64,000 nucleotides of DNA from Escherichia coli (GCF_029227855.1 NZ_CP074356.1), one strand, 5' to 3'; positions 14,650 to 15,130 are shown, counted from the first letter of the stretch. Made by a program: numbers and translations. The notes: generated from the letters alone by a model not told the origin.

Positions 14650-15130
14650 AAATATTTGGCCCCAAATAATTTTGGTGAAAACCAATCAATAAACCATTTA
14701 TCAATAGGTAAGTACCGGAAATTATTCCAGTAGAATATTTTCAGGCGATTGCCTATTAATAAATACATTATTGATAGATAAGTGCCTTCTGTGATTTGTC
14801 CGCAAATCACAGAAGATGAAAACCTATCAATACGGGATATTTTCACGGAAATACCAATTAATACTCCAGAATATCTCCTGACCATATACTCTGAAACCTG
14901 TAAGAACTGCATCAGATATTGAGAGACCATATAGATATAAGTCTGAAATTATTTTGTTTCCAATGATTTCAGGCGAAAACCTATCAATGCATCTGTTTTC
15001 AATAGGCAGCCACCTTCCGTGATTAACATGTTAATCACGGAAGGTGAAAAGCTATCAATAATCGATATTTTCACGGAATTACCACTTAATACATCCCAAA
15101 AAATGCGCCATAAAATACCGGGCAATCTTT
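14650..15130. repeat. Iteron-like repeat array: two ~80-bp direct repeats, each a 26-30-bp palindrome plus a conserved 45-bp box, with extra TATCAATAGG half-sites
   Basis: Unit A (about 14797-14877) and unit B (about 15014-15098) share TGAAAA(C/G)CTATCAATA...GATATTTTCACGGAA(A/T)TACCA(A/C)TTAATAC; palindromes TCTGTGATTTGTCCGCAAATCACAGA and CTTCCGTGATTAACATGTTAATCACGGAAG. Confidence 0.6.

Follow-up and report, generated by a model that had tools for sequence, protein, structure and literature searches.

What is the AT-rich, palindrome-laden DNA that separates a frameshifted P4-type integrase gene (int) from a convergent relaxase-like gene in a genomic island of Escherichia coli? The locus is part of the 64,000-nt stretch of chromosome analysed here (GCF_029227855.1, NZ_CP074356.1), hereafter the window. 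An initial annotation had described an iteron-like array of two palindrome-plus-box repeats between positions 14650 and 15130, next to an integrase remnant, and had proposed that it is non-coding and possibly a replication or regulatory element of a P4-like satellite. We found that the repeats form a true array of units with two-fold symmetry, adjoining the integrase remnant. It spans 14624-15092, slightly beyond the earlier coordinates, and is non-coding. Our analyses did not support its attribution to a P4-like replication element. Tentatively, and with somewhat less than an even chance of being right, we propose that the units are dispensable cis-acting sites with two-fold symmetry in duplex DNA, which would modulate island DNA processing or local chromatin beside a conserved core.

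The repeated features described initially are real, including both palindromes, the duplicated box and the extra half-sites. Two direct repeats of 131 nt (14734-14864 and 14962-15092), 73% identical, are separated by 228 bp from start to start. The first palindrome, at 14786-14815, consists of CTTCTGTGATTTG-tccg-CAAATCACAGAAG, and the second, at 15011-15046, is perfect over 36 nt with 18-nt arms (CACCTTCCGTGATTAACA|TGTTAATCACGGAAGGTG). More palindromes are found at 14648-14673, 14718-14742, 14753-14777 and 14943-14972. The 29-nt box GATATTTTCACGGAAWTACCAMTTAATAC is present in two copies starting at 14836 and 15064, for an expectation of 0. With up to three mismatches allowed, GAAAACCTATCAATA occurs five times in the window, four of them at 14677-15060 (shuffle expectation, 1.66), and five of the six YTATYAATR sites of the window are located in the intergenic region between int and the relaxase-like gene. 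The GC content is 0.29-0.35 in the array, compared with 0.53-0.62 in the flanks. On both strands, 500 nt folded much more stably than dinucleotide shuffles, with z = -7.6 for the + strand as DNA, -9.4 for the + strand as RNA and -7.6 for the - strand as RNA.

Alignment of variants from other genomes revealed that the elementary unit is a quasi-palindrome of ~73 bp, and that the two units recognised initially are super-units. The elementary units have GC contents of 27-41% and are composed of an outer box, TATYRATAGG, a short asymmetric A-rich stretch, an inner palindrome and a mirrored flank, GTGAAAAYCTATCAATA. The outer boxes are inverted relative to each other (TATYRATAGG ... CCTATYRATA), and the A-rich stretch on both sides breaks the symmetry. 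The inner palindromes, of 21-36 bp, vary in sequence among units while keeping their symmetry, as exemplified by AAAATTATTC-N6-GAATAATTTT, CTTCYGTGATT-N8-AATCACRGAAG and GTGATTAC-N3-GTAATCAC.

A covariance model, called R1, was trained on 12 units that all carry the first class of palindrome. In the window it detected four full, tiled units and one weak partial unit, with no other match at E<1. Three of the units thus recovered, b, B and C, were not part of the training set, and B and C belong to the second palindrome class. Unit A (14624-14696, + strand; 80.2 bits, a training row) has the outer boxes TTATCAATCGG and CCAATCAATA and the inner palindrome AAAAATATTTGG-cc-CCAAATAATTTT at 14648-14673. 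Unit b (14694-14766), with the inner palindrome GAAATTATTC-cagta-GAATATTTTC at 14718-14742, is inverted, scoring 48.9 bits on the - strand and 38.0 bits on the + strand; the same inversion is found in the loci L004 and L012. Unit B (14764-14837, + strand), which contains the first palindrome, scores 45.6 bits with this model built from the other class only. It is followed by box copy 1 (14836-14864, + strand; GATATTTTCACGGAAATACCAATTAATAC), which can form a short imperfect hairpin with the upstream GTGAAAAnCTATC and is the most invariant segment among the E. coli variants. A non-repeated spacer (14865-14930), with a 14-bp duplication at its start in L003, L136 and L137, separates the super-units. 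Beyond it are a partial or degenerate unit (14931-14984, + strand; 19.5 bits, E 0.08) with the palindrome CTGAAATTATT-N8-AATGATTTCAG at 14943-14972, then unit C (14992-15065, + strand; 45.0 bits), which harbours the perfect 36-nt palindrome, and lastly box copy 2 (15064-15092, + strand; GATATTTTCACGGAATTACCACTTAATAC). The 29-nt box comes after units B and C.

The palindromy of the units is kept by compensatory change. In a set of 12 distinct units, the proportion of paired cells is 82.4%; shuffles reach 74.6% (0/500), and sliding the partner lowers it to ~40%. Both sides have changed in 34 cells, in 9 of the 28 pairs. In the second palindrome class 98.1% of the cells pair, with 3 compensated pairs out of 13. 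The mismatches within units comprise three G:T, two A:C and five transversions, without strand bias. Given this lack of G:T versus A:C bias, symmetry of the duplex fits better than a hairpin formed by one strand. The boxes are invariant in 10 of 10 variants, and they are 95-97% identical, compared with 88-91% for third codon positions of the flanking genes (p = 0.01-0.07). At the deepest split, units are still 62-78% identical versus ~55% at third positions.

The array region was detected in 519 E. coli genomes. Unit-like sequence was found in 441 E. coli genomes, at a median of three and a maximum of six places, all of them chromosomal and all corresponding to this type of locus. On 26 other loci, R1 matches were confined to the spacer that separates the two convergent genes. 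Apart from those of E. coli and E. whittamii, the loci with units come from Pseudocitrobacter and Salmonella (two loci) and from a second type of E. coli island, in which the relaxase-like gene is only 70% identical. Among the loci scanned, R1 identified no unit in Enterobacter, Klebsiella, Citrobacter, other Salmonella islands, Lonsdalea, plasmids or P4. In the islands of the same backbone that have no array, the stop-to-stop spacer is 190-240 bp long and consists of the int terminator and the core. Because many sister islands do without it, the array cannot be essential, whether as a replicon or as a regulatory part. The island of strain USDA-ARS-USMARC-49610 (L135), in which int and the relaxase-like gene are both intact, does have the array. 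To judge by this distribution, the array is an accessory, dispensable and lineage-specific insertion in the int/relaxase-like spacer.

Array length ranges from 148 to 531 bp across loci, and the number of units from one to more than four. Changes that involve whole units include a 70-bp loss in L002 and a 228-bp loss that generated a B/C hybrid in E. whittamii (L012), in addition to the 14-bp duplication. Recombination between direct repeats adds or removes whole units, and now and then half of a unit is replaced so that the palindrome becomes perfect. Unit A of L003 has arms of 31 nt and is palindromic almost throughout, and its left half is wholly different from that of its orthologue in the window, as expected of template-switch 'palindrome correction'.

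We also searched for relatives of the array outside this locus. A blastn-distant search of 72,556 plasmids with the 881-bp region and the 61-bp box returned only a 473-kb Salmonella record with the same backbone, and 50,697 phage records gave no match. An exact 15-mer scan of viral contigs yielded single matches only, presumably due to chance. Among 100 viral-contig loci, R1 detected units in L062 only, which is the same E. coli locus inside a lambdoid prophage call. A scan of species-representative genomes with the composite box revealed only E. whittamii beyond chance matches. An insertion sequence (IS) or miniature inverted-repeat transposable element (MITE) was rejected, as we found no dispersal to unrelated loci and no plasmid or phage relatives. 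The identification as a known IS or MITE family, which would have overturned the initial annotation, is thus at odds with six places at most per genome, all of one locus type and none on plasmids or phages. We found no published description of the units in the literature, which was not searched exhaustively.

Next to the array is the conserved core of the spacer (15141-15385, + strand), with direct CTGYRCCAG 9-mers, phased GSCCTTT repeats and CAGGCGCTGTTACCCTTA. Across genera, nearly every sister island has the core, whether or not it also has an array. It occupies ~150-250 bp between the stops of int and the relaxase-like gene, has GSCCTTT repeats spaced by ~9-10 bp and contains CTGGCGCTGTTACCCTTA. 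Its coordinates are 5058-5215 in L019, 2860-3060 in L017 and about 6886-7078 in L020. We detected no Rfam match and no similarity to the STAXI motif in the core. A second AT-rich stretch (15386-15869) extends from the core to the stop of the relaxase-like gene and contains a unit-like palindrome, AGTGATTAC-agg-GTAATCACT, at 15688-15708, preceded by TATTAATCGGGAACG. Full units are found at the position of this second stretch in Salmonella L008 and E. coli L144. In both loci the units are located on both sides of the core, all in one orientation, with R1 scores of 67.9-86.5 bits, all five being training rows.

The 9-mers of the core are part of a wider pattern. CTGYRCCAG occurs 13 times in the window for an expectation of 1.64, with 10 copies clustered at 15148-17176, on the + strand at 15148, 15177, 15370, 15813, 16007 and 16536, and on the - strand at 16818, 16845, 16980 and 17168. 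Direct copies are found in the core, 3' of the relaxase-like gene, and inverted copies in a GC-rich, non-coding stretch upstream of the Rfam motif EFASI, which precedes that gene. The relaxase-like gene and EFASI are thus bracketed by opposed arrays. This bracketing recurs in sister islands, not on the two plasmids. The 9-mer copies are more iteron-like than the palindromic array.

The gene order of the window is that of the E. coli chromosome (cobUST-ldtA-asn-nac-cbl-asn-yeeO). The island is inserted at a tRNA-Asn gene (13034-13109, + strand; ARAGORN and Rfam), which forms its left boundary; at the identical locus in RefSeq, yeeO, tRNA-Asn and the integrase gene are annotated. ORF calls place the P4-type tyrosine integrase gene at 13169-14532 (+ strand), and its counterpart at the identical locus is annotated as 'tyrosine-type recombinase/integrase, frameshifted'. 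Its product is 42-55% identical to P4 Int at the amino acid level (tblastn). An intrinsic terminator hairpin at 14565-14594, AAGCAGATCC...GGATCTGCTT followed by a T run, is kept in every sister island. The array starts right after this terminator, and the convergent relaxase-like gene is on its far side. The island carries Rhs cargo, and both of its recombinase-type genes are frameshifted. In the loci examined, the cargo on this backbone includes genes for type VI secretion systems (T6SS), Rhs proteins, Ig-like adhesins, DarT, AbiE, Lit-like proteins and dnd defence systems. The backbone is inserted at tRNA-Asn, tRNA-Asp or tRNA-Phe genes, in E. coli, Salmonella, Klebsiella, Enterobacter, Citrobacter and Pseudocitrobacter.

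The convergent gene (15870-16487, - strand), delineated from ORF calls and the annotation of the identical locus, is a frameshifted PF12834+PF12835 gene of the putative MpsA/MOB_M relaxase type, which resembles tyrosine recombinases. A Pfam scan of an intact orthologue gave Integrase_1 at 3.9e-59 and Phage_int_SAM_2 at 2.9e-39. The gene was found in 623 of 5426 E. coli genomes, and homologues are present across Enterobacterales and on plasmids of Pantoea, Klebsiella and others. PF12835 is the signature for MpsA-type relaxases (PMC10484663), MpsA of Salmonella genomic island 1 (SGI1) being an atypical relaxase of the tyrosine recombinase family (PMC10484663, PMC6414798). According to a 2026 preprint, no type of relaxase is more common on chromosomes than MOB_M, whose members are frequently labelled integrases and in 96% of cases adjoin an integrase. 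The gene studied here is next to a tyrosine integrase gene at the end of the island, and from its Pfam family membership it is best read as a candidate MpsA/MOB_M-type relaxase gene. Because the convergent gene carries this signature and only int is P4-like, the island itself is best read as a probable decayed integrative mobilizable element rather than as a P4 satellite.

Immediately upstream of the relaxase-like gene is the EFASI motif (16543-16670, - strand; 100.8 bits). EFASI was found directly upstream of the PF12835 gene in nine of the nine loci examined, including Pantoea and Klebsiella plasmids. Its coordinates are 7766-7895 in L008, 5556-5689 in L006, 3984-4111 in L019, 3250-3378 in L015, 5808-5936 in L020, 3317-3445 in L140, 2229-2378 in L142 and 2222-2371 in L143. 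In SGI1, an essential small RNA, sgm-sRNA, is encoded at the same position, between mpsA and the origin of transfer (oriT) (PMC9299015). By analogy, EFASI may be the counterpart of sgm-sRNA or of oriT. STAXI motifs flank the PF12835 gene on plasmids (L142, 3440-3590 and 1651-1799; L143, 1660-1817) and are also present in Salmonella L008 (1999-2141 and 8117-8243). They are associated with ssb, anti-restriction and integrase genes, which fits a conjugative-transfer context.

Could the array be coding after all, or be a P4 replicon? That it represents decayed or small protein-coding genes is scarcely credible. Three overlapping ORFs do exist in the window (14646-14930 and 14949-15182 on the - strand, 14782-14922 on the + strand), PGAP calls one 99-residue 'hypothetical protein' in O145 strains, and the super-units translate to similar peptides, as they are repeats at the DNA level. 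Nevertheless, the orthologues have indels of -61, -7, +1, -47 and +14 nt, none a multiple of three, and 1-8 in-frame stops, and very few of the 519 E. coli genomes have any annotation there. The non-coding status proposed initially thus withstood a check set beforehand, namely the integrity of the first two of these ORFs, whose frames are broken in orthologues. Replication iterons of a P4-like satellite, similar to its ori or cis replication region (crr), are hardly more probable and largely refuted. In their favour, the two ~130-bp direct repeats next to a P4-type int superficially resemble the two 120-bp repeats of P4 crr, both systems having two direct repeats of ~120-130 bp with shorter inverted motifs and a P4-type integrase in the element, and a C4/CI-type antisense RNA is encoded 3 kb away. 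However, of 13 P4 proteins used in tblastn searches only Int has a match in the 64 kb, with no alpha, sid, psu, delta or epsilon. No TGTTCACC or GGTGAACA iterons were found in the island (13-23 kb), and blastn-short comparisons with P4 ori and crr returned only AT-rich words of 8-12 nt. Unlike crr, the array has neither TGTTCACC octamers nor an alpha primase gene, and its palindromes are AT-rich. Its position relative to int and the attachment site is also different. In the P4 record (int, 2607-3926; attP, 4078-4097; crr, 4291-4590; alpha, from 4636), crr is across attP from int and beside alpha, whereas the array is downstream of the int stop. Moreover, a real P4 crr-like sequence found in L145 looks entirely different, no replication gene was found in the island backbone of any genus examined, and there is no plasmid similarity.

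Other known kinds of sites were considered as well. Integrase arm-type sites were rejected, as P4 arms are TTGGGGGCAT-like and the GACCCCCAAA-type sequences of the island are near attL, not in the array. A comparison made by eye only with integration host factor sites (WATCAANNNNTTR), DnaA boxes, Fur, CRP and Xer/dif sites and Tn7- or Mu-end-like sequences revealed no consistent match across units. In Rfam 15, the region 14450-15950 has no match at the gathering level, the best being microRNA-hairpin noise at 23 bits for a threshold of 56. Like integron attC sites, the units of the array are imperfect palindromes in tandem, in which the outer boxes and an asymmetry are conserved while the symmetric centre varies, and they are next to a gene of the Xer-like tyrosine recombinase family. 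In contrast with attC sites, the units abut without cassettes, the array is at the 3' end of a gene rather than on the attI/Pc side, it has no R or L box consensus (RYYYAAC/GTTRRRY), and its neighbour is a PF12835 gene, not intI. The array does not belong to the repetitive extragenic palindrome (REP)/bacterial interspersed mosaic element (BIME), IS/MITE, P4 ori/crr, attC or Rfam families. It resembles known kinds of sequences, namely extragenic arrays of palindromic units and repeat-rich accessory DNA near relaxase genes.

Under our favoured reading, the units would act on double-stranded DNA as accessory sites, either by binding a dimeric protein or by being prone to cruciform extrusion. They would decorate the core and modulate transfer, second-strand priming or recombination, or else local chromatin. 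They would be helpful at most, not required, and would not function like the replication iterons of P4. In favour of this reading are the confinement of the units to one spacer, their placement on both sides of the core in L008 and L144, the maintained symmetry, the conservation of the boxes and of units across the deepest split, the array in L135 with its intact genes, and the MOB_M-type context. Several observations weigh against this proposal. The array is missing from islands with full-length int and relaxase-like ORFs (Salmonella L020-22 and Citrobacter L023), as well as from Klebsiella L017 and Enterobacter L019, whose int is divided between two ORFs. No binding protein for the units was identified, and no matching operators were found near the promoters of the Ner-like, 153-residue protein and integrase genes of the island. 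In three of five comparisons the identity of the whole array equals that of third codon positions (88.4 vs 88.3, 91.4 vs 89.4 and 79.3 vs 82.6%), and divergence at the synonymous rate implies that most positions are near neutral. The E. whittamii array is 96.7% identical versus 79% at third positions (p = 2e-13), but this high identity may come from recombination, not selection. Besides selection, a mutation bias due to template switching could keep the symmetry. Lastly, in SGI1 and pIGRK oriT is upstream, not downstream, of the relaxase gene. In a more specific and rather unlikely version, the units and the core together would form an unrecognised cis-acting DNA-processing site of MOB_M islands, serving in second-strand initiation or as an accessory locus of the relaxosome or of recombination. 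The array shares with the oriTs of MOB_M systems (SGI1 oriT/MpsA, pIGRK oriT/MobK and pCW3 oriT/TcpM) its repeat-rich, non-coding DNA beside a PF12835-type gene, and with MOB_M elements the context of an island with an integrase and a MOB_M relaxase. However, the characterised oriTs are upstream of the relaxase gene, that of SGI1 being 125 bp long and GC-rich, whereas the array is downstream, AT-rich, ~470 bp long and dispensable.

A close rival, possible although somewhat less probable than duplex cis-acting sites, is that the array is neutral palindromic filler, of no use to island or host, that grows and shrinks locally through unequal recombination and owes its palindromy to template switching during replication, a locus-restricted analogue of REP/BIME sequences. 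REP units are ~35-40 bp long and GC-rich, with a genome-wide consensus and hundreds of copies per genome. Like them, the units of the array are extragenic palindromes arranged head to tail with some alternation between convergent genes, their copy number varies among strains, and symmetry is conserved rather than exact sequence. Units A(+), b(-) and B(+) tile 14624-14837 in a BIME-like manner. The array units differ from REPs by their size of ~73 bp, their GC content of 27-41%, their variable inner palindromes and their restriction to one spacer of one island family. Neutrality would account for the range from one to more than four units, through the loss of exactly whole units (70 bp in L002, 228 bp in L012), for the absence of the array from many otherwise complete sister modules, for its near-synonymous divergence in three of the five comparisons, for the one-step perfection of the palindrome in unit A of L003, and for its persistence where int and the relaxase-like gene are pseudogenes, as in this window. 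It is less easily reconciled with boxes that are invariant in 10 variants, somewhat above third-position conservation, or with units that are recognisable across lineages whose synonymous sites are nearly saturated. The A-rich break of symmetry is kept in most units, and homogenisation of the palindromes should erase it. A selfish repeat would also be expected elsewhere, and none was found at other loci.

The remaining two explanations call on single-stranded nucleic acids. After conjugative transfer, the units might fold into DNA hairpins that act as single-strand initiation (ssi) sites for complementary-strand priming, or as relaxosome accessories, in a MOB_M element. We consider this unlikely. 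Strong folding as single-stranded DNA (ssDNA; z -7.6) and the shared orientation of most units are in keeping with it, as is the location of the array just 3' of the relaxase-like gene and core, since the only predicted ssi of pIGRK is directly downstream of mobK (PMC8152469). Both are hairpin-rich non-coding segments just 3' of a MOB_M gene, a likeness that extends to single-strand origin (sso) hairpins. In addition, a Pantoea plasmid carries a STAXI motif 3' of the homologous gene; STAXI is proposed to act as ssDNA. Conversely, wobble-type mismatches show no strand asymmetry, unit b is inverted, sister islands that would need the same function have no array, and neither plasmid ssi elements nor other plasmid sequences searched resemble it. 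Even less probable is an element acting at the RNA level, whether as 3' untranslated hairpins of the relaxase-like gene or as an independent small RNA that stabilises or regulates transcripts. The only strong terminator, which is bidirectional, is on the far side of the array from the stop of the relaxase-like gene, so that transcripts running on past this gene would include the array, and both strands fold strongly as RNA (z -9.4 and -7.6). However, no Rfam family reaches threshold, promoter-like sites in the region are not above chance (7 vs 4.7 expected), and there is no G-U bias for either strand. As DNA, the stems are palindromes with few imperfections, which are transversion mismatches, and on the + strand the array is beyond the int terminator.

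The analyses revealed additional features of this island and its relatives. The window contains four tRNA-Asn genes (8801-8876, 11210-11285, 13034-13109 and 37969-38044) and one tRNA-Ser gene (39036-39125), and the present analysis covers the island at 13034. The 37969 locus, beside tRNA-Ser, is occupied in sister genomes by mtfA, a lambdoid prophage and a further copy of this island type (L002, L062). In the reverse complement of L023 (Citrobacter braakii), at 4700-5870, an ORF for a 243-residue membrane protein is inserted between int and the core and bracketed by a second int 3' end and terminator, which is evidence of integrase replacement or island accretion at this spacer. In L145 (E. 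coli O17_K12a; about 3900-4660), by a dnd island, there is a genuine P4 crr-like sequence, GGTGAACAGTGTGAACA ... TGTTCACCCTTCACCC, in two copies, adjoining the core of an int-less copy of the backbone. This arrangement suggests that a P4-like element and a MOB_M island were added in tandem at a single site. A C4/CI-type antisense RNA is encoded at 18104-18192 (- strand) in the window, 2456-2643 in L019, 4160-4344 in L020 and 9131-9318 in L008, often with an isrK motif. It precedes a conserved operon that codes for a 153-residue protein without known family and a Ner/SfsB-like helix-turn-helix protein. The RNA and this operon constitute a P1/P4-style, immunity-like module of the island backbone. 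Just 3' of the Ner-like gene, at 17254-17297, a GC-rich inverted repeat (TCTCCCGGCGCGCTGCCAGC / GCAGGCAGCGCGCCGGGAGA), with 20-nt arms that are 95% complementary, may be its terminator.

Islands with this backbone carry T6SS and Rhs toxins, adhesins and anti-phage systems in Enterobacteriaceae, and how they move is just beginning to emerge, thanks to the MOB_M relaxases. A correct placement of the array guards against its mis-annotation as a P4 origin or as genes. If a factor binds to the units or DNA synthesis is primed from them, they would represent a natural modulator of island stability or transfer that varies in copy number. If they do neither, they would be a clean example of locus-restricted palindrome amplification with compensatory, possibly template-switch-driven, maintenance of symmetry. 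Should the units and the core together form a DNA-processing site, the units would serve as accessory binding sites that can be tuned, and they would offer a handle on how tyrosine-recombinase-like relaxases process DNA.

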